From positions 384,001 to 448,000 of the forward strand of contig JAWLHY010000003.1 in assembly GCA_041690135.1 (NCBI GenBank): a stretch of 64,000 nt of DNA, read 5' to 3'. Position 1 is the stretch's first letter. Every line of letters begins with the position of its first letter. Under the pieces are notes generated by a model. That model was given only the letters and a program-made list of their open reading frames with translations. It ran no database searches and was not told the origin of the DNA. This stretch comes from Armatimonadota bacterium (GTDB lineage: Bacteria > Armatimonadota > SYMT01). The translations under genes and the position numbers were made by a program. This document shows, one piece after another, positions 43,945-60,871 of the stretch.

Positions 43945-44263
43945 TTCAGCCGAAACCTGAACCCACAATCTAGAACTGGTTTCTCGGATGGCTGACGGCT
44001 GCGTATCCAGTCTCTGGGGAAGGGAGCAGCGACCATTCCCCTACAGCCGCCTATATCCAAATCTGCGAAACGAACTCCGAGCTCTGTGCTACTCCATGCC
44101 GATCCGTCCCATCCTTGTCATCCGTGTCTGATACCCAGCAGTTGCGGCAAGAGCCCTCGCCAGCGCAAGAACGTCTCAACGCGGGGAAAAGAGGAATCTC
44201 CCCGTTCCCCTGTGGAACCGCATCCCGGCGGATTCTGATTAGAGACAGACTATTCCCTTAACT

Positions 44264-44506
44264 ATGAAGTGGCTTCTCTCCGGCCTGGTGCTCCTCGTCG
44301 CGGTGGTGCATCAGGACACCTGGTTCTGGACCGACAAGACCCTGGTCTTCGGCTTCCTACCGATCGGGCTGGTTTACCATCTCGGCTACTGCCTGCTGGC
44401 GGCGGCCACGATGGCGGTGCTGGTCAAGTGGGCCTGGCCCAGCGAGCTGGAAGCGGTCGAGAGCATGCACGCCGGCGCCGCTGCCGGGGGTGAGAACCGC
44501 TCATGA
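44264..44506 (+). CDS. Small 2-TM partner of sodium:solute symporter (DUF3311-like)
   Basis: HQD.WFW....LVFGFLP.GL.YH; ATGA overlap with the SSS gene. Confidence 0.85.
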
Positions 44507-46089
44507 TCCCCGCGCTGATCGTTTTCGGCTACCTTGCGGTCGTCCTCTATATCGGCGTCTTCGCGTTCCGCAAGGGAAAGGAATCCGGCGAGGACTTCTT
44601 CCTCGCCAGCCGCGCGCTGGGTCCGGTGGTGTTCCTGCTCTCCCTGTTCGGCACGAACATGACCGCCTTCGCCATCCTCGGCAGCTCCGGTCTCTCCTAC
44701 CGGATCGGGATCGGCGTGTTCGGGCTGATGGCCTCTTCCTCCGCCCTGGTCATCCCGCTTTGCCTATTCTTCATCGGTACCCGCCTCTGGGGCCTGGGGA
44801 AGCGGTTCGGGCACATGACACAGGTCCAGTTCCTGCGCGACCGCTGGGAGTGCGGCGGCATCGGGACCTATCTCTTCGCCATCACCGCCGCGATGCTGGT
44901 GCCGTACATCATCATCGGCGTGATGGGAGGCGGCCAGACCCTGCAGACGATCAGCGCCTACACGGGTCCGGACGGGCAGGTGCGGCACTGGGTGAGCTAC
45001 GAGGCCGGCGGCGCCGTGGTGGCCCTGGTGGTGATGGGCTACGTCTTCTTCGGTGGGATGCGGGGCACCGCCTGGGTGAACACGTTCCAGACCGCCCTCT
45101 TCCTCTGCTTCGGCACGATCGCCTTCCTCCTGATCGCGAAGAACCTGGGCGGGCTCGACGGGATCATGGAAGGGCTGAAGGCGAACCCGAAATCGGCCAC
45201 GCTCTTGAGCCGCGAGAAGATCCCGCCGCGCGAGTTCTTGAGCTACATGTTCATCCCGCTCTCCTCCATCATGTTTCCGCACGTCGCGATCATGTGCATG
45301 ACGGCCGAGAAGGTGAGCCACTTCAAGAAGACCATCATCTTCTACCCGCTCTGCATCGCCGCCATCTGGCTGCCCTCCGTCTTCCTCGGCGTGGTGGGGG
45401 CCGCGCAGTTTCCCGGTCTTCAACCTGGCCAGACGGACAGCATCATCATCCGGCTGCTCACCCAGAACACCGGGGTATTGATCTCCGGAATCCTGGGTGC
45501 GGGGATCATGGCGTGCGTGATGGCTTCGGACAGCCAGATCCTGGCGCTCTGCACCATGTTCACCGAGGACTGCTTCGCCTATTACGGCGGGAAGGAGCGC
45601 TTCGGGGACAAGGCACAGGTCTGGACCGGGCGCATTTTCATCGTGCTGGTGACGACGCTGGCCTACTTGATCGCGCTCTCCCTGAAGGACAAGGCGGGCA
45701 TCTTCGGGCTGGCTATCCGCTTCGCCTTCTCCGGGTTCGCGGCCCTCGCGCCGATCATGCTGGCGGCGCTCTTCTGGAAGCGGAGCACCAAGTGGGGCGC
45801 GCTGGCGGCGGCCCTATGGGTGACGGCCACGGTACTGGGGAGCTGGTACCTCTACGAGATGTCCGCCGGCATCAAGCCGGCGCCGGGATCGGCCCCGGTC
45901 CAGATCTTCCCCGCGCTCGGCGACCTCTTCCTGCGGACCCCCGCCGACGTTACCGTCTACGGTTACCTGCCGGTGATGCCGATGTGCATCGGCTCGGCCC
46001 TCCTGATGGTTGTGGTCTCCCTGGTTACCCCGCCCCCCAGCCAGAAGACCCTCGACAAGTACTTCCCTCCCAAGTCATCGCTCGCTTGA
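44503..46089 (+). CDS. Sodium:solute symporter family transporter
   Basis: [33 protein letters not shown], ~13 TM helices. Confidence 0.93.
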
Positions 46090-46106
46090 TGCATTTCGAC
46101 CGGATT

Positions 46107-46281
46107 CTTTTCGACACGGAGGGACACAGATGATACAGAAGAACACAGAAGAAGAGGCAGCCGGATGAGTGGATGCATAGCCGCGGCCCTCGCTGCGGTG
46201 AAGGCGCCGTGATTGCCGGAATGACACCGGCCGATGCCTTCTGTGTCCTTCCGTGATCTCTGTGTCCCTCCGTGTCAAAAG
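46107..46281. repeat. Inverted pair of ~45-bp ~9-bp-periodic repeats (GACACAGA family)
   Basis: cttttcgacacggagggacacagatgatacagaagaacacagaag (46107-46151) versus the reverse complement of 46238-46281, cttttgacacggagggacacagagatcacggaaggacacagaag. Confidence 0.9.
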
Positions 46282-46326
46282 TGGCTCCCATTCGTGTCGA
46301 AGGCGCTACCTGAGTAAGTTAAAGGC

Positions 46327-47409
46327 ATGTCGAACACTGAACTGAACGAGGCCGCGCGAGCCGCGGCGGATAAGCTGGACGCGCACGTGCGCGAGATCGT
46401 GCAGTGGCACTTCTCTCTGGAGACGGGGTGCCCCTTCTGGCTGAACTGGGCGCAGAAGGCGGGGTGGAACCCGGCCGAAGAGGTGAAGGGGGTGGAGGAC
46501 CTGAAGAAGTTCCCCCACTTCCAGGACGAGTGGCTCCGCGACGAGCAGAATGACGTGTGGGTCCCCCAGGCCTACCGGGGTCGCCCGTATTACATCTTCG
46601 AGACCGGCGGCACCACCGGCATGCCCAAGCAGCGGATCGGCTGGGAAGACCACTTCAAGGACTACGAAGAGTTCTCCGAGACGCTCGATGAGAAGTACTT
46701 CCCGAAAGGCGCCAACTGGCTGATGCTCGGCCCCACCGGTCCCCGGCGGCTCCGCCTCTGCATCGAGCACCTGGCCCACGTGCGCGGCGGCAACTGCTAC
46801 CACGTCGACCTCGACCCGCGCTGGGTGAAGCGCCTCATCGCCGACAAGCAGTTCGACCAGGCCAACAAGTACAAGGAGCACGTGGTCGAGCAGGGCGCCA
46901 CGATCCTCAAGAACCGCAACGTCCAGTGCCTCTTCACCACGCCGAAGCTGCTGGAAGCGCTCGACGAGAAGATCAACGTGCCGGACGCGGGTATCAAGGG
47001 CGTCTTCTGCGGCGGCACCCAGATGACCCCGCAGAACGTGCGCTTCCTGGTGGAAGAAGTGCTCGACAACCGCGCCCAGTTCGTGCCCACCTACGGCAAC
47101 ACCCTGATGGGCCTCGCCTGTAGCCGCCCCCTCACCCGCGAGGATAACTGGAGCATCACCTACTTCGCTCCGCAGCCGCGCGCCTACCTCCGCGTCGTGG
47201 ATCCCAACAACACCGACCGGACCGTGGACTACGGTGAATGGGGAAGGGTCGAGCTCTCCACCCTCACCCGCGAGTTCTTCATGCCGCGGTTCCTGGAACG
47301 CGACGAGGCCGTCCGCCGCGAGCCGTGGGCGCGCTTCCCGTGGGACGGCGTCGGTGAAGTCCGCCCGTTCGGTGCCCTGGAGAAGAAGACGATCGAAGGA
47401 GTCTACTAA
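46327..47409 (+). CDS. Short adenylate-forming protein, GriC/EhpF(LuxE)-like
   Basis: WHFS.ETGCPFW N-terminus, P-loop FETGGTTGMPK, LGPTGP, DLDPRWVK, TYGNTLMG, FLERD; only 360 aa, lacking the small C-terminal ANL subdomain. Confidence 0.78.
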   Translation: MSNTELNEAARAAADKLDAHVREIVQWHFSLETGCPFWLNWAQKAGWNPAEEVKGVEDLKKFPHFQDEWLRDEQNDVWVPQAYRGRPYYIFETGGTTGMPKQRIGWEDHFKDYEEFSETLDEKYFPKGANWLMLGPTGPRRLRLCIEHLAHVRGGNCYHVDLDPRWVKRLIADKQFDQANKYKEHVVEQGATILKNRNVQCLFTTPKLLEALDEKINVPDAGIKGVFCGGTQMTPQNVRFLVEEVLDNRAQFVPTYGNTLMGLACSRPLTREDNWSITYFAPQPRAYLRVVDPNNTDRTVDYGEWGRVELSTLTREFFMPRFLERDEAVRREPWARFPWDGVGEVRPFGALEKKTIEGVY

Positions 47410-47461
47410 AGGCCTCTGCGAAATATTCGGTGGCGTTGCACTCGGGTAGGGTGAACGGACG

Positions 47462-47580
47462 CTCCCCTCTCTCGCAGATTCGGGAGAGGGATAGGGACTT
47501 GTGGGTTGGCCATAGCGCCTGCGGTGGCCAGTGTGACCTCACCCCCCCCGCCCCCTCTCCGACACAGAGAGGGGGAGTCC
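47462..47580. repeat. REP-like CCCCTCTC...GAGAGGGG palindromes
   Basis: ctcccctctctcgcagattcgggagagggat and ccccctctccgacacagagaggggag; related motifs at ~24137-24180. Confidence 0.65.
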
Positions 47581-47761
47581 GTGCACAAGACGGGGTGCCT
47601 CCTGCGCTTCTGACTACCGCTTTCGAGACTAGGTTGCCGTGAGTTAACACACATGGAGGCAGGGGTGAGCGCAACCGTGTGTGTGGAGTACGGGCTTTCG
47701 GGCAGTGCTGCCTCGTCCAACCGTTCTGGTTCCGCTGTCGGCTTTCACTAAGGATAGGGAG

Positions 47762-48010
47762 ATGGATTTCGATATCCACAGTGCACTGCCGCAATGGAAT
47801 GACTTCGAGGCGGCCGCTCGTGAACATGATGAGGATGCGAGGGCTCTCCTCAACGGCTACATCCGCGAGTGTCTGGAAGCCTGGGCGGAGTTAGACCTAC
47901 ATGCGGAGATCGCTCGTGATGTGCAGGTTACAGGCTATCAAGAGGATGATGCGGTCGAGCTAGTTCGGCGCATCCGAGCGGAGCGGAGGGGCCAAGGTGC
48001 CGTCTCCTGA
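47762..48010 (+). CDS. Small acidic protein, antitoxin-like; no adjacent toxin
   Basis: 82 aa, MDFDIHSALPQWNDFEAAA...LLNGYIRECLE.W...EDDAVELVRRIRAE; codon usage differs from the neighbours. Confidence 0.55.
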   Translation: MDFDIHSALPQWNDFEAAAREHDEDARALLNGYIRECLEAWAELDLHAEIARDVQVTGYQEDDAVELVRRIRAERRGQGAVS

Positions 48011-48039
48011 GAATCGGATTTCATACGAGGAGGCCCGTA

Positions 48040-49305
48040 ATGAGATGGATCGCTGTTAGTCTGGTGGCCGGCGGCATCGTGGCCGCCTTGCCGGCCCAGG
48101 CCCAGGAGTGGACCCGGTTCCGCGGCCCGAACGGCACGGGGATCAGCGCGGCCAAGGGCATTCCCGTGCAGTTCACGGAAGCGGACTTCAACTGGAAGGT
48201 CAAGCTCCCCGGCGCCGGGCATTCCTCGCCGGTGATCTGGGGGGACAAGGTCTTCATTACCAGTGCCGAGGAGGACCAGGGGAAGCAGCACCTCCTTTGC
48301 CTCCAAGCGTCGGACGGGAAGCAGCTCTGGTCGGTGACGCGGACCTTCGACAAGTACAACCGGCACAAGTTCAACAGCTACGCCTCGGCTACCGCCGCGG
48401 TGGATAAGGACCTGGTCTACGTCCCCTGGTACACGCCGGCGATGGCCAGCCTCATCGCCTACACCCACGACGGCAAAGAAGTCTGGAAGCGCGACCTGGG
48501 CCAGTGGCACGGACAGCATGGGGGGGCCGCCTCTCCGATCCTGTTCGAGAACCTGGTGATCATCCGCCAGGACTGCGACGACATGGGGCCCGAGTCGTTC
48601 GTTTTGGCCATGGATCGGAAGACGGGGCAAGAGAAGTGGCGCTGCCCACGCATTTCCAAGACGGCCTCCTACTCGACGCCGGTGCTGTTCAAGGGGAAGG
48701 ACGGCGCGTCGCAGCTGGTCTTCAACAGCAACGCGCACGGCTTTACGGGGGTCGATCCGCGGACCGGCAAGGTGCTCTGGGAGGTGCCGAACCTCTTCCA
48801 GCAGCGGTGTGTCAGCACCCCGGCGATTGCCGGTGATGCCGTGATCGGAACCGCCGGCAACGGCGGCGGCGCGCGGCAGGGGGTGGCCGTCCGCCCGGAC
48901 GCCGCGAAGGCCAAAGCGGCAGACGTGGTCGCCTACCAGCTTGACCGGCGCGTGACCCCTTACGTGCCGACCCCGCTGGTCTACGGAGAGCACGTCTTCC
49001 TGTGGGGCGACGGCGGAATCCTGAGCTGCGTGAAGGCGGCGAACGGGGAAACCGTCTGGTCGGAGCGGGTCGGCGGAAACTACTTCAGCTCGCCAGTCTG
49101 CATCGACGGTAAACTGTACGGGGTGAACTCGGCGGGAGAGGTCGTGGTGGTGGAAGCTGGTCCCCAGTTCAAACTGCTCGGCCGCAGCCCGCTCGGCGAT
49201 CCCTGTCACTCCACTCCCGCGGTCTCCGGGGGCGCGCTTTACGTACACACCGAGGGCCACCTCATCTCTATCGGCGGCAAGAAAAAAGTCGCCCAGAACC
49301 CGTAA
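48040..49305 (+). CDS. Secreted PQQ-like/BamB-type beta-propeller protein
   Basis: Signal peptide AQA-QEWTRFRGPNG.G, G.SSPVIWGDKVF, repeated G...W docking motifs, SSPV/STP blades; GGAGG RBS. Confidence 0.92.
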   Translation: MRWIAVSLVAGGIVAALPAQAQEWTRFRGPNGTGISAAKGIPVQFTEADFNWKVKLPGAGHSSPVIWGDKVFITSAEEDQGKQHLLCLQASDGKQLWSVTRTFDKYNRHKFNSYASATAAVDKDLVYVPWYTPAMASLIAYTHDGKEVWKRDLGQWHGQHGGAASPILFENLVIIRQDCDDMGPESFVLAMDRKTGQEKWRCPRISKTASYSTPVLFKGKDGASQLVFNSNAHGFTGVDPRTGKVLWEVPNLFQQRCVSTPAIAGDAVIGTAGNGGGARQGVAVRPDAAKAKAADVVAYQLDRRVTPYVPTPLVYGEHVFLWGDGGILSCVKAANGETVWSERVGGNYFSSPVCIDGKLYGVNSAGEVVVVEAGPQFKLLGRSPLGDPCHSTPAVSGGALYVHTEGHLISIGGKKKVAQNP

Positions 49306-49319
49306 CAGCAGTACATCAG

Positions 49320-50738
49320 ATGTCGTTGCCTCACATTCCCGTCCTGCGCCGCGGCCAGGTATACGAAAGTCTCGACCAGGTCGAGCTCAAGAGCGTCCGC
49401 ACCGGCGAGCCGGTGGCGAGCGTGGGCCAGGCTAACGCCGGCCTCATCCGTCGTGACCTCCGCCGGCAGTCCCGCGATGCCTACCGGGGCTACTCGGTCA
49501 ACGATCTCCTGGGGATCTGTGATCGTGCCGGCCGCCTTTTCATGGAAGCCGAGCTGCCCCTGGGCAATGGGTCCCAGACCCCGGAGCAGTATATCGAGTC
49601 GCTCTCGGCGACCAGCGGCCTGCCGTATGCCCTTTGCCGCCGCAACATGGGGAAGATCCACCAGGTCTTCACCGAGATGCCGCTGATCCTCAAGGGCCTC
49701 ACCCGCGGCATGGACCCTAGCGTGATCGACCAGGGGACGGGCGAGCAGAACGGCGTACCGGTGAGCTACTACGCCACCACGGAATCGCTGGGGGTGGTCC
49801 TGCCCAGCAACTCTCCGGGCGTGAACTCCCTCTGGATGCCGGCGATCCCGCTCAAGGTGCCGGTGGTGCTGAAGCCGGGCCGCGAAGAGCCCTGGACGCC
49901 GTTCCGGATCATCCAGGCGTTCATCGCCGCGGGTGCTCCCGCCGAAGCCTTCAGCTTCTACGGGACAGACCATGAGGGCAGCGGCGCCGTGATGGACGCC
50001 TGCAAGCGGGCGCTGATCTTCGGCGATGAGAGCACCGTCCAGCGTTACGCGGGCAATCCCGGCGTGTCGGTTCACGGCCCCGGTCGCAGCAAGATCCTGA
50101 TCGGGAACGACGAGATCGAGCGGTGGCCGGAGTATGTCGGCCTGATCGCGGATTCCATCGCCCTCAACGGTGGCCGGAGCTGCGTCAACGCCTCCGCCGT
50201 GGTCGTGCCGAAGTACGCCGACGAGATCGCCGATGCTGTGGCCCGCAAGCTGGCCGAGTTGAAGCCGGTCTCCTACACCGACGAGACGGCGGTCCTCTCC
50301 GGGTTCGCCAACCCGAAGATGGCGGAGTACATCGATGCCGCCATCGAACAGGATCTGGACGGTGCGGAGGAGGTGACGGCGAAGTACCGGTCCGGCTCCC
50401 GCAAGGTGCTGCTGGACGGCTGCACCTACCTGCAGCCGACGCTGGTCCGGTGTCCCTCCTTCGAACACCCGCTTGCGAACAAGGAGTTCCTGTTCCCGTA
50501 CGCGAGCGTAGTGGAGGTGCCCCAGGAGCGGATGCTGGAACTGATCGGTCCGTCGCTGGTCGTCAGCGGGATCACCAGGGATCCGGAGTTCATCGAAGCG
50601 TTGATCGCCTCGCCGCTGATCGACCGGTTGAACCTCGGGCCGGTGCCCACTCCCGCCGTGCAGTGGGACCAGCCGCATGAGGGAAACCTCTTCGAATTCC
50701 TCTACCGCCGCCGCGCCATCCATCGCGCCAACTGGTAG
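49320..50738 (+). CDS. Aldehyde dehydrogenase-fold acyl reductase, GriD/EhpG/LuxC-like
   Basis: VLPSNSP, LKPGREEP, IFG, catalytic Cys in NGGRSCVNAS, EFLFP; HGPGRSK replaces the ELGGKS general-base motif. Confidence 0.82.
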   Translation: MSLPHIPVLRRGQVYESLDQVELKSVRTGEPVASVGQANAGLIRRDLRRQSRDAYRGYSVNDLLGICDRAGRLFMEAELPLGNGSQTPEQYIESLSATSGLPYALCRRNMGKIHQVFTEMPLILKGLTRGMDPSVIDQGTGEQNGVPVSYYATTESLGVVLPSNSPGVNSLWMPAIPLKVPVVLKPGREEPWTPFRIIQAFIAAGAPAEAFSFYGTDHEGSGAVMDACKRALIFGDESTVQRYAGNPGVSVHGPGRSKILIGNDEIERWPEYVGLIADSIALNGGRSCVNASAVVVPKYADEIADAVARKLAELKPVSYTDETAVLSGFANPKMAEYIDAAIEQDLDGAEEVTAKYRSGSRKVLLDGCTYLQPTLVRCPSFEHPLANKEFLFPYASVVEVPQERMLELIGPSLVVSGITRDPEFIEALIASPLIDRLNLGPVPTPAVQWDQPHEGNLFEFLYRRRAIHRANW

Positions 50739-50772
50739 AAGGCAACGGGGCCAGGGGCCTCGCGGATCTCGC

Positions 50773-50920
50773 TTAGTGCCGGGGGCGGCGAACGCCGCTG
50801 CAGTTGGGCGAGTGAACTCGCGGCTACAAACAGCGACTGCCCGGAGGGCGCCCGCCTCCGTCGGCTGGGGACCCTACAGCGGTTATACTTTGACGGCTCC
50901 TTAGTGCCGGGGGCGGCGAA
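50773..50920. repeat. 20-bp direct repeat flanking a REP-like palindrome
   Basis: TTAGTGCCGGGGGCGGCGAA at 50773 and 50901; GCGAGTGAACTCGCGGCT between them. Confidence 0.8.
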
Positions 50921-50964
50921 GGCCGTCCCCGTTCTCTGAATACAGTGGTAGCAGCGTTTTGTTG

Positions 50965-52131
50965 ATGATCGGATTCGACTACCAGCCCCGGACCCGACTG
51001 ATCTTCGGCGCCAACTCGGTAGACAGGCTGGGCGAGTTGGCCCGAGAGCTCCCTTCCCGCCGGGTGCTGGTGGTCACCGACCCCGGCATCGCGGCGGCCG
51101 GACATCTCGACCGGGCCCGCCGCGCGCTCGAAGGCGCCGGCCTGGAGGTCGTCGTGTACGACCAGGTGCGGGAGAACCCGACCACCCTGGACGTGGACCG
51201 CTGCCTGGAGGTAGCGCGTGCGGCCGACATCGACGGCATCATCGGCTTCGGGGGCGGCAGCAGCATCGATACCGCCAAGGGCTGTAACTTCCTGCTGACC
51301 AACGGCGGGAGGATGCGGGACTACTGGGGCGTGGGCAAGGCCCCGCACCCCATGCTGCCGCTGATCGCCGTGCCCACCACTTCCGGTACCGGCAGCGAAT
51401 GCCAGTCGTTCGCCCTGATCGCGGACGAGGAGACCCACCAGAAGATGGCCTGCGGCGACCCGAAAGCAGCCGCGCGGGTCGCTCTCCTCGACCCCACCCT
51501 GACGCTTTCCCAGCCGCGCGCCGTAACCGCCTGCACCGGCATCGATGCCATCGCGCACGCGGTCGAGACCGCCGTGACGAAGAAGCGGAATGAACTTTCC
51601 CTGCTCTACTCGCGGGAGGCGTTCCGGCTGACGATCCAAAACTTCACGCGCGTCCTCGAGGCGCCGGACAACCTGGAAGCGCGCTCCGCCATGCTCCTCG
51701 GCGCAGCCTATGCCGGCACCGCCATCGAGAACAGCATGCTGGGCGCGGCCCACTCTGCCGCCAACCCGCTGACCGCCCACTACGGCATCATCCACGGCCA
51801 GGCGGTGGGGATGATGCTCCCGCACGTGGTCCGCTTCAATGCGGCCGAATCGCCCGCCCGCGAGCTGTACCAGGAACTCGCCCTGGCCGCCGGCCTCATA
51901 GCATCGACCGCCCCCCTGGGATCGGGCGCGGAAGCCATCGCGCGGAAACTCGAAGAACTCCTTGCCGCCGCGGGAATGCCCCTCTCGCCCTCCGGTCATG
52001 GCATGACGCCCGCTGCGGTGACGGATCTCGCGCCCGAGGCCGCCGCCCAGTGGACCGCCACCTTCAATCCCCGCCCCATCACCGCGCCCGACTTCGAGCG
52101 CCTCTACGCGTCCGCCCTGGCCGCCGGCTAA
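50965..52131 (+). CDS. Iron-containing (family III) alcohol dehydrogenase
   Basis: VVTD.G, ENP, GGGSSIDTAK, PTTSGTGSE, DAIAHAVE, GAAHS, HGQA. Confidence 0.95.
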   Translation: MIGFDYQPRTRLIFGANSVDRLGELARELPSRRVLVVTDPGIAAAGHLDRARRALEGAGLEVVVYDQVRENPTTLDVDRCLEVARAADIDGIIGFGGGSSIDTAKGCNFLLTNGGRMRDYWGVGKAPHPMLPLIAVPTTSGTGSECQSFALIADEETHQKMACGDPKAAARVALLDPTLTLSQPRAVTACTGIDAIAHAVETAVTKKRNELSLLYSREAFRLTIQNFTRVLEAPDNLEARSAMLLGAAYAGTAIENSMLGAAHSAANPLTAHYGIIHGQAVGMMLPHVVRFNAAESPARELYQELALAAGLIASTAPLGSGAEAIARKLEELLAAAGMPLSPSGHGMTPAAVTDLAPEAAAQWTATFNPRPITAPDFERLYASALAAG

Positions 52132-52426
52132 ACCCCCAATCCCCAACCCCGATCCATCTCCCAACGCAACCACAAAGAACCCTGGCACTTCGTGGGCGTC
52201 ATAAGAAGCGGGCTTTCCTCGCGGGCGACTGCATTTCCGGGTGCCTTCCCGCCTTCGATCTGCGTAGTAGTAAGGGGTGCCGGGTCTGAATTCTCGTTCG
52301 AACGACCTTTTACCCGTAAGAGATATCAGGAAGCAAGTGCGGCACTCGGAGCGGCGCCGAATGGGTAGGGCGGTCGCTCTTACCGCACCCCGCGCATCCC
52401 GTCGCTTCTCTGGCAGGAGATTCGTT

Positions 52427-53560
52427 ATGCCCGCTTACGTGCCACGAGATACCTGGAAGAGGTTCCTTCTCACCGGCCTGGCGCTGACGCTCGGGGCTTC
52501 GGCGGCCAGCGCGTCCTGGCCGACCTTCCGGGGCTCGGCCAAGCAGTTGGGGTTGGCGCCCGGCAAGCTCTCCAGCAGCTTCAAGCTGAACTGGAAGTAC
52601 AAGACGAGCGGCGCGCTGCTCTCCTCGCCGGTGGTTCATCGCAACCGGGCCTATATCGGCGCGGGTGATGGTCACGTCCATGCCGTGGACCTGGCGAACG
52701 GCAAGAGGGTGTGGGCCTACAAGACCGGCGCGGCCATCGAGGCGCCGCCGGCGGTAGTGTCCGGGCTCGTGGTGATCGGCTCGTCGGACGGCATCCTTTA
52801 CGGACTGGACGCTGCCACCGGAAAGCCGCGCTGGAAGTACAAGACGGAAGACAAGATCCTCGGCGCGGCCAATCCCGTCCCGGCGGCGAAGGGGAAGGGC
52901 TGGTGGGTCGTGGTGGGCAGCTACGACAACAAGGTCCACTGCGTCAACGCCGCCACGGGCAAGGCGGTGTGGACCTACACCACGGAGAACTATGTCAACG
53001 GCACCCCCGCCATCGATGCCGGCCGGGTCATCTTCGGCGGCTGCGATGGGATGCTCTACGTTTTGAACCTGGCCGATGGTAAGCTCCTGAAATCGATCGA
53101 GATCCAGGACTACATCGCCGGATCCGCCGCGGTGGACGGAAAGATGGTTTACCTGGGCCACTACGGCAACGAGTTCGTGGCGGCGGACGTGGCGGGCGGC
53201 AAGGTGACCTGGAAGTACCGCGACCGCCAGTTCCCCTACTTCTCTTCCCCCGCGGTGACGGCCGACCGGATCGTGGTCGGCGGCCGGGACAAGCGGGTCC
53301 ACTGCATCGGCCGCGCGGACGGCAAGCCCCTGTGGGACTTCCGCACGCGGGGTAAAGTGGACAGCTCTCCGGTTATCTGTGATGCTAAAGTGGTGGTCGG
53401 CTCGGAAGATGGCCGGCTCTATGTCCTCAACCTGGCCGACGGGAAAGAGATCTGGTCCTACGATCTCGGCGCTCCCGTGATGAGCTCCCCCGCCGTGTCG
53501 GACGGCCGGGTAGTCATCGGCGCGAACGACGGCTACGTCTACGCCTTCACGGCCAAATGA
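52427..53560 (+). CDS. Secreted PQQ-like/BamB-type beta-propeller protein (8 regular blades)
   Basis: Signal peptide ASA-SWPTFRG; repeats SSP.V....V..GS.DG.L...D...GK..W.Y; AGGAGA RBS. Confidence 0.92.
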   Translation: MPAYVPRDTWKRFLLTGLALTLGASAASASWPTFRGSAKQLGLAPGKLSSSFKLNWKYKTSGALLSSPVVHRNRAYIGAGDGHVHAVDLANGKRVWAYKTGAAIEAPPAVVSGLVVIGSSDGILYGLDAATGKPRWKYKTEDKILGAANPVPAAKGKGWWVVVGSYDNKVHCVNAATGKAVWTYTTENYVNGTPAIDAGRVIFGGCDGMLYVLNLADGKLLKSIEIQDYIAGSAAVDGKMVYLGHYGNEFVAADVAGGKVTWKYRDRQFPYFSSPAVTADRIVVGGRDKRVHCIGRADGKPLWDFRTRGKVDSSPVICDAKVVVGSEDGRLYVLNLADGKEIWSYDLGAPVMSSPAVSDGRVVIGANDGYVYAFTAK

Positions 53561-53579
53561 TCCCCGGGAGTAATGATTG

Positions 53580-54914
53580 ATGGCTGGAACGGTCCAACTG
53601 GTACAGCTCGCGAATGAGAGCGAGACGAGGGCAGGCAACTACTTCGTCTCGAACTATCCCCCCTACTCGTTCTGGTCGCCGGATTACGTGGCCGACGCCG
53701 AAGCGGCCCTCAACCGCCCGCCGGCGCCCGGCACCCAGCTCGGGCTGTACATGCACATCCCGTTCTGCCGCCGCCGCTGCCACTTCTGCTACTTCCGGGT
53801 CTACACGGACAAGAACTCCTCGGAGATCCAGCGCTACCTGGACGCGGCCATCGCGGAGCTGGAGCTGTACGTCCGGAAGCCGTTCCTCGGTGGCCGGAAG
53901 CCCCATTTCATCTATTTCGGCGGGGGCACCCCCTCCTATCTCTCGGTCCGGCAGCTCACCTACCTCACGGACGGCATGAAGCGGCTGCTGCCCTGGGATG
54001 AGGCAGAGGAGATCGCCTTCGAGGCGGAGCCCGGCACCCTCACCGAGCCGAAGATGCGGGAGATCCGGAACCTGGGCATCACCCGTCTCAGCCTCGGGGT
54101 GGAGCACTTCGAGGACCGGATACTGAAGCTGAACGGCCGGGCGCACGATGCATCCGCCATCGACCGGGCCTACGGGTTCGCCCGCTCCATCGATTTCCCG
54201 CAGATCAACATCGACCTCATCGCGGGCATGATGGGCGACACCACCGAGGGGTGGCAGGCCTGCGTGCAGAAGACGATCGAGCTGGCTCCCGACAGCGTGA
54301 CCATCTACCAGATGGAGATCCCGTACAACACCACCATCTACCAGGAGATGAAGGCGCAGGGAGCCGAGATCGCGCCGGTGGCGACGTGGGGCACCAAGCG
54401 GGAGTGGGTGCGCTACGCCTTCGAGCAGCTCGAGAAGGCGGGTTACACCGTCACGAGCGCCTACACCGCCGTCAAGGACCCGGCCAGGACCAAGTTCATC
54501 TACCGCGACCAGCTCTGGACGGGGGCGGACCTCATCGGGTTGGGAGTGGCCTCCTTCTCCCACATCGGCGGCACCCACTACCAGAACCAGCACAACTGGG
54601 ACCCCTACATCGAGCGCTTGAGCGCGGGCCAGCTCCCGATCTACCGGGCGCTCACCCCCACGTCCGAAGAGCGGATGATCCGGGAGTTGCTGCTCCAGTT
54701 CAAGCTGGGTCACGTCAATGCCGGCTACTTCCGCGAGAAGTTCGGCGTGGAGCTCACCGACCGGTTCGTCGAAGCGCTGGGGCGCCTGCAAGAGTGGGGT
54801 TACCTGAGCATCGAGGGTGACGAGCTGCGGTTCAACCGCGACGGCCTGCTGCAAGCCGACCGCCTCATCCACGAATTCTTCCTGCCGCAGCACCGGGATA
54901 AGAGGTATGCCTGA
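53580..54914 (+). CDS. HemN-like (class C-type) radical SAM enzyme
   Basis: LYMHIPFCRRRCHFCYF (CxxxCxxC), YFGGGTPS, RLSLGVE, INIDLIAG, LIGLGVASFS, C-terminal HemN_C-like domain; N-terminal GNYFVSNYPP. Confidence 0.92.
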   Translation: MAGTVQLVQLANESETRAGNYFVSNYPPYSFWSPDYVADAEAALNRPPAPGTQLGLYMHIPFCRRRCHFCYFRVYTDKNSSEIQRYLDAAIAELELYVRKPFLGGRKPHFIYFGGGTPSYLSVRQLTYLTDGMKRLLPWDEAEEIAFEAEPGTLTEPKMREIRNLGITRLSLGVEHFEDRILKLNGRAHDASAIDRAYGFARSIDFPQINIDLIAGMMGDTTEGWQACVQKTIELAPDSVTIYQMEIPYNTTIYQEMKAQGAEIAPVATWGTKREWVRYAFEQLEKAGYTVTSAYTAVKDPARTKFIYRDQLWTGADLIGLGVASFSHIGGTHYQNQHNWDPYIERLSAGQLPIYRALTPTSEERMIRELLLQFKLGHVNAGYFREKFGVELTDRFVEALGRLQEWGYLSIEGDELRFNRDGLLQADRLIHEFFLPQHRDKRYA

Positions 54915-55566
54915 TCCGGGTTTGACCGGGCCACAGGGGCTGGGCGATGCCGTGGCCGGGGCGCGCCAGGCGGTGGAGAGTGGGGTCGTTTCCCGGCCCC
55001 CCTTCGATCCGCGCAGCGTGCCGATGGGGCTGGCCATCAGCGACCTGCTCTATCCGCTCGGCGAGTTCTACGCGGAAGCGGGACGTCCCCTGCCGCCGGT
55101 CGTGCAGGTGCCGGGGGAACAGGTGCCGGAGCCTTATCGCCAGCTCCTGGTGCACGCCAGCGACATGACGCCCACGCTGGAGCGGTTCCACGGCGACACG
55201 ATCCACCTGCGGCCGCTGCAGCGGCGCCTGGTGGACGACACCATGTGCCGGCAGGTAGTGCTGACACTGGATGAAAGCCTCCGGCCCGTGGAGTATGGCG
55301 CCATCGCCATCCACTGCCGGCACTTCCCGGAGGAAGCGCGCCAGTTGATCGTCGAGAGCCGCTGCCCGCTCGGCACAATCCTCAACCGTTACCGGATCCC
55401 GCACTTCAGCCGCCCGCGCGCCTTCTTCCGGGTCACCGCCGACGACTTCATGAACGAGGCGCTCGGCTTGACCGGCCGCCAGGAGCTCTACGGCCGCCGC
55501 AATGTTCTGCTCGCCCCTGGGGATGTTGTACTGGCCGACGTACTCGAAATACTCCCTCCCGGATAA
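54907..55566 (+). CDS. Chorismate pyruvate-lyase-like (UbiC/DUF98/UTRA fold) protein
   Basis: LL....MT..LE, R.V.L......V.YG, PLG.IL, YGRR..L......L..V.E pattern of UbiC-fold proteins; 8-bp overlap with the radical SAM stop codon. Confidence 0.65.
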   Translation: MPDPGLTGPQGLGDAVAGARQAVESGVVSRPPFDPRSVPMGLAISDLLYPLGEFYAEAGRPLPPVVQVPGEQVPEPYRQLLVHASDMTPTLERFHGDTIHLRPLQRRLVDDTMCRQVVLTLDESLRPVEYGAIAIHCRHFPEEARQLIVESRCPLGTILNRYRIPHFSRPRAFFRVTADDFMNEALGLTGRQELYGRRNVLLAPGDVVLADVLEILPPG

Positions 55567-55666
55567 GCTGTGCGATAAGGTGCGACGGAATTGGCAAGCT
55601 TCACCGTAGGGCATGCAGGGAAACCAGATCTCCCGGTGTCGGTTCGAGAACGCTATGTTTTCTTTC

Positions 55667-55714
55667 GAGTCCGCGCAGGCGGACTTCGGTTAGTTAGCCG
55701 CGGGTTTTAACCCG
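55667..55714. repeat. REP-like double palindrome
   Basis: GAGTCCGCGCAGGCGGACTT...TAGCCGCGGGTTTTAACCCG; related to the element at ~50807-50865. Confidence 0.7.
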
Positions 55715-55724
55715 AGGACGGCCC

Positions 55725-57053
55725 ATGCGCATCATTCAACTGACTCCCGGCACCGGTAGCTTCTACTGCGGCACCTGCCTGCGCGACAACGCCCTGGTGA
55801 CGGAGCTGCGCCGCCGCGGGCACGATGCGATGATGGTGCCGCTCTACCTGCCGCCCACGCTGGATGAAGCGCCTGCCTCCGCGGAGAGTCCGCTTTTCTA
55901 CGGCGGGATCAACGTCTACCTCCAGCATAAGTCCGGCCTGTTCCGCAAGACGCCGCGGTGGGTGGACCGCCTGCTGGATGCGCCGGGCGTGCTGAAGAAG
56001 GCGGCCGGCCGCGCGGGGATGACGGCCGCGAGCGAGCTTGCCGACCTGACGCTCTCGACACTCCGCGGCGAAGAGGGGAACCAGCTCAAGGAGCTGGACC
56101 GCCTGGCCGAGTGGCTGGCGACAGAGGGCCGGCCGGACGTCGTCTGCCTCTCCAATATCCTCCTGATCGGGCTCGCGCGCCGGATCAAGCAGCTCACCGG
56201 GGCGCGCGTCCTCTGCACGCTCCAGGGCGAGGACTCGTTCATCGACAGCTTTCCGGAGCCGGACCGGCAGGCCTCCTGGGATCTCCTGGCCGAACGCGCG
56301 GCCGACGTCGACCTGTTCGTGGCCGTGAGCCACTACTATGCGGACGTGATGACCCGCCGCGCGCGCCTTCCCGCGGACCGGGTGCACGTGGTGTACAACG
56401 GGATCTCGCTGGACGGCTACAATCCGGCTCCGGCCCCGCCCGACCCGCCGGTGCTGGGCTACCTCTCCCGGATGTTCCACGCGAAGGGTCTGGGCACACT
56501 GGTGGAGGCCTACCTCCTGCTGCGGGCGAGTGGTCGCGTCCCGGGCCTCAAGCTGCGGGTCGCCGGCACGAAGCTTTCCGTGGACGACGCCTACCTCGGA
56601 ATGCTGCGGGCGCGCCTGGCGGAGAAAGGGGCGGAAGGGGACGTGGAGTTCCTGCCCAATATCAGCCGGGAGGAGAAGATCGACTTCCTGCGCGGCCTTT
56701 CCGTCCTCTCCGTGCCGACCACCTACGGCGAGTCGTTCGGCCTTTACCTGGTCGAGGCGTGGGCCGCGGGGGTGCCGGTCGTGCAGCCGCGCCACGCCGC
56801 TTTCCCCGAACTCCTGGAAGCCACCGGTGGGGGATTGCTTTGCGAGCCGGACGACGCGCAGTCGCTGGCGACTTGCCTCGAACAGGTGCTCACCGACCCC
56901 AGGCGGGCACGCGAGATGGGCCTCCGAGCCCGTCGGGTCGTCGAGGAGCGCTTCAGCGTTCAGGCCATGGCCGAGGGCGTGGAACGCGTCCTCACCGGCC
57001 CCCCCTCTGAGGCGCCGCTGTTTGCAGAGCCCGTCACTGCCATGCGAGAATAG
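55725..57053 (+). CDS. Glycosyltransferase family 4 (GT-B) with N-terminal CxxC
   Basis: RRGHD, VVYNGI, SR....KG, ESFGLYLVEA (E-x7-E), GVPVV; N-terminal PGTGSFYCGTCLRDN. Confidence 0.92.
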   Translation: MRIIQLTPGTGSFYCGTCLRDNALVTELRRRGHDAMMVPLYLPPTLDEAPASAESPLFYGGINVYLQHKSGLFRKTPRWVDRLLDAPGVLKKAAGRAGMTAASELADLTLSTLRGEEGNQLKELDRLAEWLATEGRPDVVCLSNILLIGLARRIKQLTGARVLCTLQGEDSFIDSFPEPDRQASWDLLAERAADVDLFVAVSHYYADVMTRRARLPADRVHVVYNGISLDGYNPAPAPPDPPVLGYLSRMFHAKGLGTLVEAYLLLRASGRVPGLKLRVAGTKLSVDDAYLGMLRARLAEKGAEGDVEFLPNISREEKIDFLRGLSVLSVPTTYGESFGLYLVEAWAAGVPVVQPRHAAFPELLEATGGGLLCEPDDAQSLATCLEQVLTDPRRAREMGLRARRVVEERFSVQAMAEGVERVLTGPPSEAPLFAEPVTAMRE

Positions 57054-57807: not shown

Positions 57808-58263
57808 ATGGCATATGAATACAGAGTAACGATTCGCGTTCAGTTCGCCGACACGGACCTCGCGGGGATCGTTCACTTTTCGAATTTCTTCCGCTACATG
57901 GAGACCGCCGAGCACGCCTTCTTCCGCTCGCTCGGCACCTCGATCCACGCAGAGCATGAGGGCCGCACCATCGGCTGGCCGCGGGTGAAGGCGACTTGCG
58001 AGTACCGGGCCCCGCTCAAGTTCGAGGACGAGGTGGAGGTCCATCTCCTCGTGCGGGAGAAGAAATCCAAGTCGTTGACCTACGACTTCATCTTCCGCAA
58101 GGTCAACGGCGATACTCCGGTGGAAGTCGCGCGGGGTTCGGTCACGGCCGTGTGCGTGACGCTGGACGAGCAGACCCGCCGGATGAAGGCAACCGCTATT
58201 CCCGACGCCATCTATAACCAGATCGAAGTGGCGCCGCACGAATTATTAGAAGGAGCAGCTTGA
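57808..58263 (+). CDS. Hotdog-fold acyl-CoA thioesterase (4HBT/YbgC family)
   Basis: RVQFADTD.AGIVHFSNFFRYME, C.YRAPLKFED. Confidence 0.92.
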   Translation: MAYEYRVTIRVQFADTDLAGIVHFSNFFRYMETAEHAFFRSLGTSIHAEHEGRTIGWPRVKATCEYRAPLKFEDEVEVHLLVREKKSKSLTYDFIFRKVNGDTPVEVARGSVTAVCVTLDEQTRRMKATAIPDAIYNQIEVAPHELLEGAA

Positions 58264-58823
58264 TGGGAGGCGCGCAGCAGCAGTCGGGCATGGCCTGGCT
58301 GGCATTCGCCCTGATGACGGTGGCGTCCTGGGGGGTTTACGGGGTCTTCCTGCACACCGGCCAGATGGCCATGCAGGACCCGGTCAATGGCCGGTACAAG
58401 GCGTTCCTCTTCGTGGGGATCGCCTACTTCCTCACGGCCGTGCTCGCTCCCCTGATCCTGCTGATGATGCGGGGGGCTTCGTGGGATATGCCCGCCCGGG
58501 GGATGACCTGGTCCCTGATCGCCGGGATCGTGGGGGCGATCGGCGCGTTCTGCGTGCTGCTCGCCTTCGGCGCGGGCGGGAAGCCGCCGTACGTAATGTC
58601 GATCGTCTTCGCCGGCGCGCCTATCGTCAACGCCGTCGTCTCCCTGGCGATGCACCCGCCGCACGGAGGCTGGTCGACGATCAAGCCGCAGTTCGTGCTC
58701 GGCATGGTGCTGGCCGCCGTCGGCGGTCTGCTGGTCACCCTCTACAAGCCGGCCGATAAGCCCGCGGCCAAGCCGGGAGCGCCGCCGGCCCACGCCGTGG
58801 TTTCGGAAGGGAAATCTGCGTGA
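58260..58823 (+). CDS. Single-domain EamA/DMT-like membrane protein (5 TM)
   Basis: WLAFALMTVASWGVYG, SLIAG..GAIG, VMSIVF.GAPIVN; coupled to both neighbours. Confidence 0.75.
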   Translation: MMGGAQQQSGMAWLAFALMTVASWGVYGVFLHTGQMAMQDPVNGRYKAFLFVGIAYFLTAVLAPLILLMMRGASWDMPARGMTWSLIAGIVGAIGAFCVLLAFGAGGKPPYVMSIVFAGAPIVNAVVSLAMHPPHGGWSTIKPQFVLGMVLAAVGGLLVTLYKPADKPAAKPGAPPAHAVVSEGKSA

Positions 58824-60115
58824 GTGCTGCGGAGTATCCCGACCGCAGCCGCCTGGAAGCCGAACAGCTCCGGCTGCTGCGTGGGATGATCGCGGAGCTG
58901 GTTCCCGCGAACCGCTTCTACAGCCGTAAATGGGAGGAGGCCGGGATCGCCGGCCTCCCCGCCTCCCTGGAGGAGTTCTCGCGCCTCTATCCGCTGACCC
59001 GGAAAGAAGAACTGGTGGAAGACCAGCGCGCGCAGCCTCCCTACGGTACCAATCTCACCTATCCGCTGGAGCGGTACACCCGCTTCCACCAGACCAGCGG
59101 CACCACCGGGCAGCCCCTGCGGTGGCTCGATACCAACGCCACCTGGAGCTGGATGGTCGATAACTGGGTCGAGGTGTTCCGTGCGTCCGGGGTGACCCAT
59201 CACGACCGGATCTTCTTTGCCTTTTCCTTCGGTCCGTTCCTCGGCTTCTGGACCGCTTTCGAAGCAGGGCTCCGCCTGGAAGCACTCTGTCTTCCCGGTG
59301 GTGGCATGAGCACCCAGGCGCGACTCCGGGCGATCCTCGATAACCAGGTCACCGCCCTGTGCTGCACGCCGACCTACGCGATCCGCCTGGGAGAAGAGGC
59401 GGCCGCGGAGGGCGTCGACCTCGGCCGGAGCATGGTGCGTACCATTGTGGTGGCCGGCGAGCCGGGGGCGGGTATTCCCGCCACGCGCGCCCGGATCGAG
59501 CGTCTCTGGCCGGGAGCGCGGCTGTGCGACCACCACGGCATGACGGAAGTCGGCCCGGTGACCTTCGAGTGTCCCGCCCGGCCCGGCGTGCTCCATGTGA
59601 TCGAGCGGAGCTTCATCGCCGAGGTGATCGATCCGGCGACCGGATCTCCCGTCCTTCCCGGAGAGATCGGCGAGCTCGTGCTGACGAACCTGGGGCGGGT
59701 CGGCTCCCCGTTGGTGCGGTACTGCACCGGCGACCAGGTCCGCCGTTCCATCTCCGAGCCGTGCGCCTGCGGACGCAGTGACTTCGCACTCGATGGCGGG
59801 ATCATGGGCCGGACCGACGACATGGTGGTGATCCGGGGCGTGAACGTTTACCCGACGGCGCTGGAGGCCATCGTGCGGAAATTCGAGCGGATCGCGGAGT
59901 ACCGCGCGGAGATCCATAGCGAGGGACCCATGCCGGAACTGCGAGTTCTGCTGGAACCGGTACCCGACTGTGGAGACGTAACCGCATTGGGAGCCGAAGT
60001 CGAGGCCGCCCTCCGCACGGCATTCAACCTCCGCACGCCGGTGTCCGTGGTTAGCCCGGGGTCGCTGCCCCGGTTCGAGCTCAAGGCCAAACGCTGGGTC
60101 CGCGTCGATCGTTGA
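58820..60115 (+). CDS. Phenylacetate-CoA ligase (PaaK)-like aryl-acid adenylating enzyme
   Basis: TSGTTG.P, TPTYA, AGEPG, HGMTEVG, RY.TGD, GRTDDM..IRGVNVYP, C-terminal KAKR. Confidence 0.92.
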   Translation: MSAAEYPDRSRLEAEQLRLLRGMIAELVPANRFYSRKWEEAGIAGLPASLEEFSRLYPLTRKEELVEDQRAQPPYGTNLTYPLERYTRFHQTSGTTGQPLRWLDTNATWSWMVDNWVEVFRASGVTHHDRIFFAFSFGPFLGFWTAFEAGLRLEALCLPGGGMSTQARLRAILDNQVTALCCTPTYAIRLGEEAAAEGVDLGRSMVRTIVVAGEPGAGIPATRARIERLWPGARLCDHHGMTEVGPVTFECPARPGVLHVIERSFIAEVIDPATGSPVLPGEIGELVLTNLGRVGSPLVRYCTGDQVRRSISEPCACGRSDFALDGGIMGRTDDMVVIRGVNVYPTALEAIVRKFERIAEYRAEIHSEGPMPELRVLLEPVPDCGDVTALGAEVEAALRTAFNLRTPVSVVSPGSLPRFELKAKRWVRVDR

Positions 60116-60121: not shown

Positions 60122-60871
60122 GTGCGAGACCCCGAAGGAAACAGGAAAACGATCGTGCCCGAGTCCCTCCACAAACCCCTCCTGCAATTGAGCGGAATCG
60201 GCAAGAGCTACTCCGCCACGGGCGACGCGGCCGAGACGACCGTGCTGCGCGGCCTGGACCTGGAGCTGGCGCCCGGCGAAGCGGTGGTGATCATCGGTCC
60301 TTCCGGCTCCGGTAAGAGCACCCTGCTGAACATCCTGGGCACGCTCGACCGCCCCACCGCGGGGCAGATCCGGCTGGACGGGAAGGACCTCACCGGCCTG
60401 GACGAGAAGGCGCTGGCCGAGCTGCGCAGCCGGGAGATCGGGTTCGTTTTCCAGCTTCACCACCTGCTGCCGCAGTGCACCGTGCTGGAGAATGTGCTGG
60501 TGCCGACCCTCGCCGCCGGCGCGGTCCAGCGGAAGGAAAAGGCGGAAGCGCGGGCGCGACGTCTCCTGGAACGTGTCGGCCTGGGAGAGCGTCTTTCGCA
60601 CCGGCCCGGACAGCTTTCCGGTGGGGAGCGCCAGCGAGTGGCGGTGGTCCGCGCGCTCATCAATGAGCCGAAGCTGGTGCTGGCGGATGAACCCACCGGC
60701 TCTCTCGACCGGGCCTCCGCGGAAGTGCTCGCCGACCTGTTCGTGGCCCTCAACCAGGAGGAGGGGGTCAGCCTGGTGGTGGTGACGCACTCGATGGGCC
60801 TCGCGCGCCGCATGTCCCGCGTGCTCGAACTGCGCGACGGCGCCCTCGTGCCGGCAGAGCTACCGCAATGA
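60122..60871 (+). CDS. LolD/MacB-type ABC ATPase
   Basis: GPSGSGKSTLL, IGFVFQ.HHLL, LSGGERQRVA, LADEPTGSLD, VTH. Start may be GTG 60155. Confidence 0.95.
   Translation: MRDPEGNRKTIVPESLHKPLLQLSGIGKSYSATGDAAETTVLRGLDLELAPGEAVVIIGPSGSGKSTLLNILGTLDRPTAGQIRLDGKDLTGLDEKALAELRSREIGFVFQLHHLLPQCTVLENVLVPTLAAGAVQRKEKAEARARRLLERVGLGERLSHRPGQLSGGERQRVAVVRALINEPKLVLADEPTGSLDRASAEVLADLFVALNQEEGVSLVVVTHSMGLARRMSRVLELRDGALVPAELPQ

Follow-up and report, generated by a model that had tools for sequence, protein, structure and literature searches.

A putative EhpF/EhpG-type carboxylate reductase and its associated alcohol dehydrogenase in a conserved gene cluster of an Armatimonadota genome

Does a short adenylating enzyme, encoded close to an aldehyde dehydrogenase (ALDH)-like protein and an alcohol dehydrogenase, take part in the reduction of a carboxylic acid to an alcohol? 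The question is raised by positions 46327 to 52131 of a 64,000-nucleotide stretch of an Armatimonadota bacterium (GenBank assembly GCA_041690135.1, contig JAWLHY010000003.1, positions 384,001 to 448,000), here called the window, in which an initial annotation had proposed a split carboxylic acid reductase (CAR) followed by an iron-containing alcohol dehydrogenase (Fe-ADH). The proteins concerned are P0001 (46327..47409, 360 amino acids, aa), an EhpF-like adenylase of the ANL type that lacks the C-terminal domain; P0002 (49320..50738, 472 aa), an EhpG-like reductase of the ALDH fold; and a group-III Fe-ADH (50959..52131), all encoded on the + strand. The evidence gathered here makes it probable that P0001 and P0002 constitute a carrier-free, two-protein carboxylate reductase of the EhpF/EhpG (GriC/GriD) type, with the Fe-ADH completing an acid-to-alcohol relay. 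This evidence consists of homology, residue equivalence, strict co-occurrence, synteny and a model-level interface, and from it we infer the chemical steps, the cofactor and the substrate.

P0001 contains the motif FETGGTTGMPK at residues 91-101, which confirms the ANL P-loop initially read in this 360-aa open reading frame (ORF). Among 25 orthologues, residues E92-G98, P100 and K101 of the loop (ETGGTTGMPK, 92-101) are invariant and M99 is nearly so. The protein matches the EhpF structures PDB 3l2k and 3hgu (E 1.6e-47) from residue 15 to 360, against residues 18-366 of 366, and Pfam assigns it the AMP-binding N-domain alone (32.9 bits), with no other family even at E<=10. Given this end-to-end match and the single Pfam domain, the length of 360 aa is the normal form of the family and not a truncation. 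To call the reductase split is misleading, since the two-protein form is native to the family and does not represent a broken fused CAR.

The gene for P0001 is present in a single copy in its genome. A plasmid search recovered 29 records with 31-37% identity to P0001, among them records from Pantoea agglomerans, Burkholderia ubonensis, many Streptomyces and two haloarchaea. Close relatives are very abundant in environmental data: each of the 8000 candidates scored lay at E<=0.001, and the top 120 of them showed 70-94% identity. The EhpF-like family as a whole is small; clustered at 50%, it comprises 1441 representatives at E<=1e-3, of which 238 reach E<=1e-30. One EhpF-like 'arylcarboxylate reductase', on plasmid p1 of Streptomyces angustmyceticus (L029, 4823-11044), has no adjacent ALDH gene and is flanked by futalosine-pathway genes (1,4-dihydroxy-6-naphthoate synthase, MqnE, MqnC and a 'menaquinone biosynthesis protein'), and at locus L045 a similar EhpF-like gene lies directly 5' of a type I polyketide synthase.

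The partner protein P0002 is a marginal member of Pfam Aldedh (47 bits), and the best solved ALDH scores 38 bits. It carries HGPGRSK at residues 252-258 and NGGRSC at 283-288. Alignment of a 22-orthologue profile to the solved ALDH KauB (6b4r) places His252 on the general-base Glu of LEAGGKS, and Cys288 and Asn164 on the catalytic Cys and the oxyanion Asn, respectively; Lys185 corresponds to the cofactor-binding Lys and Arg188 to the Glu that usually disfavours NADP. This alignment indicates that HGPGRSK and NGGRSC are true positional equivalents of the ALDH motifs and no chance strings, in agreement with the original reading of the ORF at 49320 as one that keeps the catalytic Cys and has lost the Glu. 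In 16 EhpG-like proteins compared, the general-base position is occupied by His in 11 (the window clade), by Tyr in 2 and by Gln, Leu or Arg in the others, and in none by Glu, while the catalytic Cys and the oxyanion Asn are present in 16/16. Arg188, located at the position that discriminates the 2'-phosphate, suggests NADPH as the cofactor. A structure model of P0002 (pLDDT 85.2) has the ALDH fold, with TM scores of about 0.7 to many ALDHs at 13-17% identity. The fold search with this model returned generic ALDHs and singled out no reductive subclass, and no EhpG-like structure was recovered by it or by the PDB sequence search.

The same two-gene architecture occurs in EhpF/EhpG of the Pantoea agglomerans D-alanylgriseoluteic acid (phenazine) cluster. 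In the Pantoea record an EhpF homologue lies in the phenazine cluster and is directly followed by an 'aldehyde dehydrogenase family protein', and P0002 aligns to this protein in the EhpG position with 27% identity over 437 aa (124 bits, E 2e-35) and GPGRSK in common, a score far above that with any solved ALDH. A published gene table also gives as neighbours ehpF, an AMP-binding protein, and ehpG, an ALDH family protein (PMC11278526). In both systems the adenylase measures about 360 aa and has no ANL C-terminal domain, and its partner of about 470 aa combines the ALDH fold, GPGRSK and the catalytic Cys with the loss of the general-base Glu. The assignment to the EhpF/EhpG type made at the outset was thus right at the family level. 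The two systems differ in that identity is 32% for the adenylase and 27% for the reductase, the window clade forms a separate branch (SH-aLRT 100%), and the Glu position holds His in the window clade and Gln in Pantoea. Also, the window has no phenazine genes, and a symporter, the Fe-ADH and exported beta-propellers are linked to the pair instead.

GriC/GriD of Streptomyces griseus, from the grixazone pathway, reduces 3-amino-4-hydroxybenzoate (3,4-AHBA). The likeness lies in the proposed chemistry and in Streptomyces plasmid proteins annotated as 'arylcarboxylate reductase', which are P0001 homologues with 31-35% identity; the window differs in having no 3,4-AHBA synthase context. No carrier-protein (PP-binding) domain and no phenazine, grixazone or lux genes were found among the 22 window ORFs scanned (39995-63999), which agrees with the phosphopantetheine independence and the context outside these pathways that had been claimed for the pair.

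Patterns of occurrence also tie the two genes to each other. In an even sample of 201 genomes from the window's own phylum the EhpF-like gene is found in 14 and the ALDH-like gene in exactly those 14, and an orthologue of a radical S-adenosylmethionine (radical-SAM) gene located further downstream occurs in 10, all within the 14 that bear the pair. Related genomes are not independent, so these counts are no statistic; the nesting is nonetheless clean. In a Verrucomicrobiota sample of 201 genomes the EhpF-like gene occurs in 4. This rarity marks it as an accessory gene, and a housekeeping role was rejected in view of its patchy distribution in both samples.

A scan of genomes with P0001 yielded 27 loci, 10 of them labelled as Armatimonadota or its orders (77-84% identity), 14 as Opitutales or Verrucomicrobiota (64-67% identity) and 3 with other labels. 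Synteny was assessed in these loci together with regions from five genomes, after removal of L042 (same contig as L005) and L041 (no hits). The ALDH-like gene starts no more than 1700 bp 3' of the EhpF-like gene in 18 of 24 evaluable loci, and no more than 200 bp from it in 16 of 28 loci. Four stretches (L002, L003, L004 and L023) contain no ALDH-like gene, and in all four of their genomes the orthologue is present on another contig. A symporter gene lies within 1400 bp 5' of the EhpF-like gene in 22 of 26 evaluable loci.

Trees of the two proteins, built in a quick IQ-TREE run with SH-aLRT support only, are congruent. Armatimonadota-like and Opitutales sequences form one clade (SH-aLRT 100), inside which each phylum is monophyletic (SH-aLRT 98-100), and the phenazine-type pairs lie apart; the deep branching of the outgroup is not resolved in these trees. 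The ALDH gene adjoins the EhpF homologue in all five annotated or scanned outgroup loci that carry one (L030, L031, L032, L044, L046), and outgroup contexts of an aromatic kind include phenazine genes in Pantoea and DAHP synthase with PabB in S. goshikiensis. On two haloarchaeal plasmids the symporter, EhpF-like and ALDH-like genes stand in a row with a short-chain dehydrogenase/reductase (SDR) beside them. These triads are located at 1854-11184 of L031 (Halomarina plasmid) and 5508-10332 of L046 (Halalkalicoccus jeotgali plasmid 2). Upstream of the Halomarina triad lie a PQQ_2 propeller, a MarR-like gene and a ThiN-domain gene; a role in thiamine salvage, considered on account of the latter, was dropped as it concerned a single locus and had no other support.

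Complex prediction with P0002 and P0001 gave a score of 0.72 (runs 0.72, 0.71 and 0.73), compared with 0.22 for the best of three controls, which favours binding. In calibration, 58 of 80 solved complexes attained this mark, as did 2 of 110 mismatched pairs; these values hold only roughly since custom alignments were used. At least 55% of contacts agreed between runs, with partner pLDDT of at least 87. The contacts predicted with confidence are those of an N-terminal arm of P0002 (residues 17-19 and 37-48), which the Pfam ALDH match does not cover, with residues 210-214, 234-245 and 274-275 of P0001. The prediction supports an association of the two proteins. We know of no solved complex of this kind, and recall of one by the model is possible.

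The third gene of the proposed relay encodes, as initially annotated, an Fe-ADH, whose two domains score above the Pfam cut-offs (Fe-ADH 176.6 bits, ADH_Fe_C 112.7 bits). Its best solved relatives are methanol dehydrogenase 8zrl (E 7e-55), FucO and 1,3-propanediol oxidoreductase, and the alignment to 8zrl conserves GIDAxxHAxE and His-rich stretches that we take to be the metal-ligand motifs (Asp/His). In the sample of the window's phylum, an orthologue (E<=1e-85) is present in 13 of the 14 pair-bearing genomes and in none of the 187 others, a co-occurrence that holds even where the gene sits on another contig, and in 17 of 20 evaluable loci the Fe-ADH gene lies within 1300 bp 3' of the ALDH-like gene. 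Among distant EhpF-like proteins two natural fusions were found, P0224 (725 aa) with a zinc-dependent alcohol dehydrogenase (Zn-ADH) in front and P0169 (824 aa) with a class-III aminotransferase, both partners being aldehyde-consuming enzymes. A further EhpF-like protein, P0244 (687 aa), has an N-terminal part without an assigned family. Co-occurrence, synteny, the controlled complex prediction and the Zn-ADH fusion thus lend support to the acid-to-alcohol relay as a likely function.

In the proposed mechanism P0001 would use ATP to form an acyl-adenylate, P0002 would dock on P0001 via its N-terminal arm, and Cys288 of P0002 would take the acyl group as a thioester. This thioester is proposed to escape hydrolysis because the general-base Glu is missing. 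NAD(P)H, possibly NADPH as suggested by Arg188, would then reduce it to the aldehyde, and the co-inherited Fe-ADH would reduce the aldehyde to the alcohol. The net reaction up to the aldehyde (acid, ATP and NADPH) would be that of type I CARs such as Nocardia/Mycobacterium Car, which unite A, T and R domains in one chain and require a phosphopantetheinyl transferase; P0001 and P0002 differ from these in having neither a PP-binding domain nor an SDR-type R domain, which are absent from the 22 scanned window ORFs as well, in the ALDH fold of the reductase and in being two polypeptides. The steps are derived from general ALDH chemistry and from the GriC/GriD scheme. As described, that scheme consists of the formation of acyl-AMP by an AMP-binding protein and subsequent reduction by a separate dehydrogenase (PMC10179220).

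Several observations weigh against this interpretation. Concerning the proteins themselves, the conserved residues of the predicted interface belong to proteins that are largely conserved throughout (mean column identity 77% and 67%), and kinship with GriC/GriD is indirect, running through the annotated Streptomyces 'arylcarboxylate reductase' proteins rather than through the GriC and GriD sequences. In canonical ANL enzymes the adenylation Lys is supplied by the C-terminal domain, which P0001 lacks, so that its adenylation competence is not self-evident. At the gene level, the pair is 2 to 8 kb apart or split by contig breaks in 6 of 24 loci, and it is separated in the window too, where a 630-bp gap and a propeller gene (48040-49305) intervene. 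The Fe-ADH gene is non-adjacent in L024, L039 and L040 and was not found in genome G091 (93% complete), and two of its matches, G036:C1:3771744-3772886 (TGA) and G012:C39:19651-20697 (TAG), contain one in-frame stop each, which may reflect pseudogenes, sequencing errors or joined hits. Finally, the pair occurs without the radical-SAM/chorismate-lyase module of the cluster described below in G012, G036, G079, G091 and the haloarchaeal plasmids, and a hydroxybenzoate made by the cluster can therefore not be the universal substrate.

If the aldehyde were the working product of the reductase pair, the Fe-ADH would act on another substrate or in the oxidative direction, and there would be no acid-to-alcohol relay. 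Such an arrangement would accommodate the aminotransferase fusion P0169, which has no ADH, as well as the three loci out of 20 and the G091 genome in which the Fe-ADH is displaced or was not found; the grixazone pathway is also described as using its aldehyde further (PMC10179220). The restriction of the Fe-ADH to pair-bearing genomes, of which 13 of 14 carry it, and its usual place after the ALDH-like gene argue in the opposite direction, as do the SDR beside the haloarchaeal ALDH-like genes and the existence of the Zn-ADH fusion, and we regard this alternative as unlikely.

Still less probable is a fatty-acid to fatty-alcohol route of the LuxE/LuxC kind with a medium- or long-chain aliphatic substrate, the alternative put forward in the initial annotation. 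In LuxE/LuxC one protein performs the ATP-dependent activation and the NADPH reduction takes place on the Cys of the other, an ALDH-fold protein, with no phosphopantetheine arm; both schemes share this outline, in which an acyl group activated with ATP is transferred to the Cys of an ALDH-fold reductase, and the glycosyltransferase and envelope-type MacB exporter of the cluster would fit a glycolipid. Yet the only Pfam families matched by P0001 and P0002 at E<=10 are AMP-binding and Aldedh, and the nearest relatives and the context are different ones: EhpF/EhpG and 'arylcarboxylate reductase' proteins from clusters for aromatic metabolites (phenazine, DAHP synthase, PabB), and neighbours with an aromatic-acid flavour, namely a chorismate-lyase fold, a PaaK-like ligase and a 4HBT thioesterase. 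SSS transporters, moreover, carry small polar solutes. That the two proteins do not cooperate at all, P0002 being a free-standing aldehyde-oxidising or CoA-acylating dehydrogenase and P0001 an amide, ester or CoA-thioester ligase, would suit their non-adjacent genes in the window and the loss of Glu, which is also typical of CoA-acylating ALDHs such as methylmalonate-semialdehyde dehydrogenase (among the weak matches of P0002), but is very improbable in view of the identical presence and absence over the 201 genomes, the congruent trees, the complex prediction that exceeded its controls and the adjoining EhpF homologues in 5/5 ALDH-carrying outgroup loci.

Returning to the two-protein carboxylate reductase with its Fe-ADH, the favoured substrate is a small aromatic acid of the hydroxybenzoate type, with chances of an aromatic substrate that are roughly even. 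It is favoured by the phenazine, DAHP synthase and PabB contexts of the relatives, by the chorismate-lyase fold, and by the PaaK-like ligase accompanied by a 4HBT thioesterase. The acid could be imported by the adjacent symporter or made by the chorismate-lyase-fold protein. The link to the symporter, together with the occurrence of the pair without the second module, suggests that some hosts, at least, make use of an acid taken up from outside.

The pair and the Fe-ADH form part of a conserved cluster of at least 14 genes that extends over roughly 20 kb, from 44503 to beyond the window end at 63999, with all genes on the + strand. Neither this wider context nor the interruption of the reductase pair in the window had been noted in the initial annotation. 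Stop and start codons overlap at 58260/58263, 58820/58823 and 60868/60871. The first gene of the conserved block (44503..46089) encodes the sodium:solute symporter (SSS family; Pfam SSF 133 bits). Between the adenylase and reductase genes lies an exported PQQ_2/BamB-like beta-propeller (48040..49305; Pfam PQQ_2 86.9 bits), with an N-terminus that resembles a signal peptide as judged by eye. A propeller in this place is present in L001, L005, L007, L009 and L026 and absent from all Opitutales loci. For the gap that precedes it (47410-48039), neither Rfam nor a nucleotide comparison with 32 related loci gave a match, and the ORF 47681-48010 inside it belongs to no Pfam or NCBIfam family.

After the Fe-ADH gene follows a second exported beta-propeller (52277..53560; Pfam Beta-prop_ACSF4 307 bits, PQQ_2 201 bits), whose likely start is near 52427, an internal Met being followed by a stretch that resembles a signal peptide. 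A propeller occupies this place in 11 of 13 evaluable loci, and in 9 of 12 the radical-SAM gene comes next. In the window this gene (53577..54914) encodes a HemN-like enzyme of the class C type (Pfam Radical_SAM and HemN_C), for which all NCBIfam HemN, HutW and HemW matches remain under their cut-offs.

The next gene encodes a protein of 180 aa with a chorismate-lyase/UTRA fold, similar to DUF98 (55024..55566). The listed ORF starts at 54817, and homologues favour the Met at 55024. Pfam and NCBIfam gave no match and the PDB sequence profile search only chance-level matches, and the assignment comes from a structure model (pLDDT 93.7) and Foldseek. The top match is AF1396 of DUF98 (2nwi; E 1.5e-7, TM 0.66-0.76), UbiC structures 1g1b, 1fw9 and 1g81 reach TM 0.51-0.59, and comparable scores are obtained with the UTRA ligand-binding domains of regulators. 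A lead in the same sense comes from the atlas, where 11-19% of the members of neighbouring clusters bear Chor_lyase/Rv2949c-like assignments.

Further downstream are a GT4 glycosyltransferase (55725..57053; Pfam Glycos_transf_1 and Glyco_transf_4), conserved downstream in Opitutales loci and in L042 too, and a 4HBT-fold, YbgC/FadM-like thioesterase (57808..58263; Pfam 4HBT_2). Orthologues of the latter are 55% identical in genome G026, by radical-SAM and DUF98-like genes, and 40% identical in G201 (Opitutaceae), after the GT4. In the window the two genes are separated by a PIN-domain gene (57298-57762) and a small ORF upstream of it (57071-57319), which look like a toxin-antitoxin insertion into the cluster; in G201 they abut (GT4 end at 2547 and thioesterase start at 2550 in L049). 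The small polytopic membrane protein that follows (58260..58823) has no Pfam match and an orthologue of 61% identity in the same place in G201; a DMT-like half-transporter is an atlas lead (score 0.98 to clusters auto-named DMT permease). A PaaK-like aryl/acyl-CoA ligase (58820..60115; Pfam AMP-binding and AMP-binding_C_2) possesses the C-terminal domain, scores 200 bits with NCBIfam PaaK, under the cut-off, and has orthologues in G026 (63% identity) and G201 (50%). Last come the ABC ATPase of a MacB-type exporter (60122..60871; Pfam ABC_tran) and an FtsX/MacB-like permease that runs off the window end (60868..63999; Pfam FtsX and MacB_PCD), both encoded in the same order in G201, the ATPase with 53% identity and the permease with 36% identity over 988 aa.

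The gene order in G201 is MarR, two propellers, symporter, EhpF-like, ALDH-like, Fe-ADH, propeller, radical-SAM, a 184-198-aa protein, a flavin adenine dinucleotide (FAD) enzyme, GT4, 4HBT thioesterase, small membrane protein, PaaK-like ligase, ABC ATPase and FtsX permease. From the symporter to FtsX the window follows the same order with three differences: an extra propeller after the EhpF-like gene, no FAD enzyme, and the PIN-domain gene after GT4. Directly upstream of the symporter the window has genes for a Uma2-family endonuclease (42033-42752) and an LplA/LipB-like lipoate-protein ligase (43129-43944), a place taken by propeller genes in related loci. In G026 the second half of the cluster is found on a separate contig from the pair (FAD enzyme, Na/H exchanger, radical-SAM, small protein, thioesterase, ligase), and in G036 the reductase pair occurs alone. 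The cluster therefore looks like two modules, the second of which was never seen without the first. Rfam gave no match in the whole window at the gathering threshold and hence no riboswitch hint at a ligand, and a scan of 43000-61000 found no promoter-like sites and 7 terminator-like sites against 9.0 expected.

The FAD enzyme, encoded at 14995-16266 of the G201 locus (L027) and at 6345-7652 of the G026 locus (L047), contains GGGPAG and WFWNIP or WFWYIP, the latter conforming to a WxWxIP motif that we assume to be a halogenase-type signature. Its best NCBIfam match is the halogenase CmlS, with 198 bits far under the cut-off of 900, and it scores 133 with GG-reductase (cut-off 159). The window's genome has two homologues (43-44% identity) outside the window, at G000 C13:17332-18513 and C3:308914-310110. 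The coexistence of a chorismate-lyase fold and a WxWxIP FAD enzyme in the Opitutaceae genome and in G026 resembles halophenol pathways such as the tetrabromobiphenyldiol cluster. A cluster with chorismate lyase, halogenase and P450 has been described (PMC10579414). The present cluster differs in having no P450, in the location of the halogenase-like gene outside the window, and in the addition of a CAR, an Fe-ADH, a radical-SAM enzyme and a GT4.

A tentative proposal, which we consider rather doubtful, is that the genes from 44503 to beyond 63999 make up one undescribed pathway conserved between phyla, comprising hydroxybenzoate formation by the chorismate-lyase fold, tailoring, reduction, glycosylation and export. 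The chorismate-lyase-fold enzyme would make a hydroxybenzoate, and the PaaK-like ligase and the 4HBT thioesterase would bracket its tailoring on a CoA thioester, by halogenation where the WxWxIP flavoenzyme is present and by radical-SAM methylation or C-C chemistry. The carrier-free CAR and the Fe-ADH would then reduce the acid to a hydroxybenzyl alcohol, the GT4 would glycosylate it, and the small membrane protein with the MacB-type pump would deliver the product to the envelope or outside, where the exported beta-propellers would act. The core of symporter, CAR and reductase would be an older module, also used alone in haloarchaeal plasmids and some Armatimonadota-like genomes, presumably for the uptake and reduction of an external acid. 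A literature search, with most subscription journals outside its reach, returned no description of the cluster or of a carrier-free CAR in these phyla.

The enzyme type as such is already known. What is new is a distinct, abundant and strongly conserved clade with a dedicated Fe-ADH, its link to symporter and propeller genes, which reaches into the archaea, and an order of at least 14 genes common to two phyla. CARs are sought-after biocatalysts, and those in use exceed 1100 aa and need a phosphopantetheinyl transferase. With a carrier-free pair of 360 and 472 aa, expression and engineering would be simpler, and this pair would bring its own alcohol dehydrogenase, and the abundance of the clade in environmental data makes natural variants available as a panel. 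The docking model with the N-terminal arm suggests how an ANL enzyme without its C-terminal domain may hand over a labile acyl-adenylate. Finally, the gene order shared by two phyla and the haloarchaeal triad point to a small-molecule pathway that has so far gone unrecognised in little-studied bacteria of soil and aquatic habitats.

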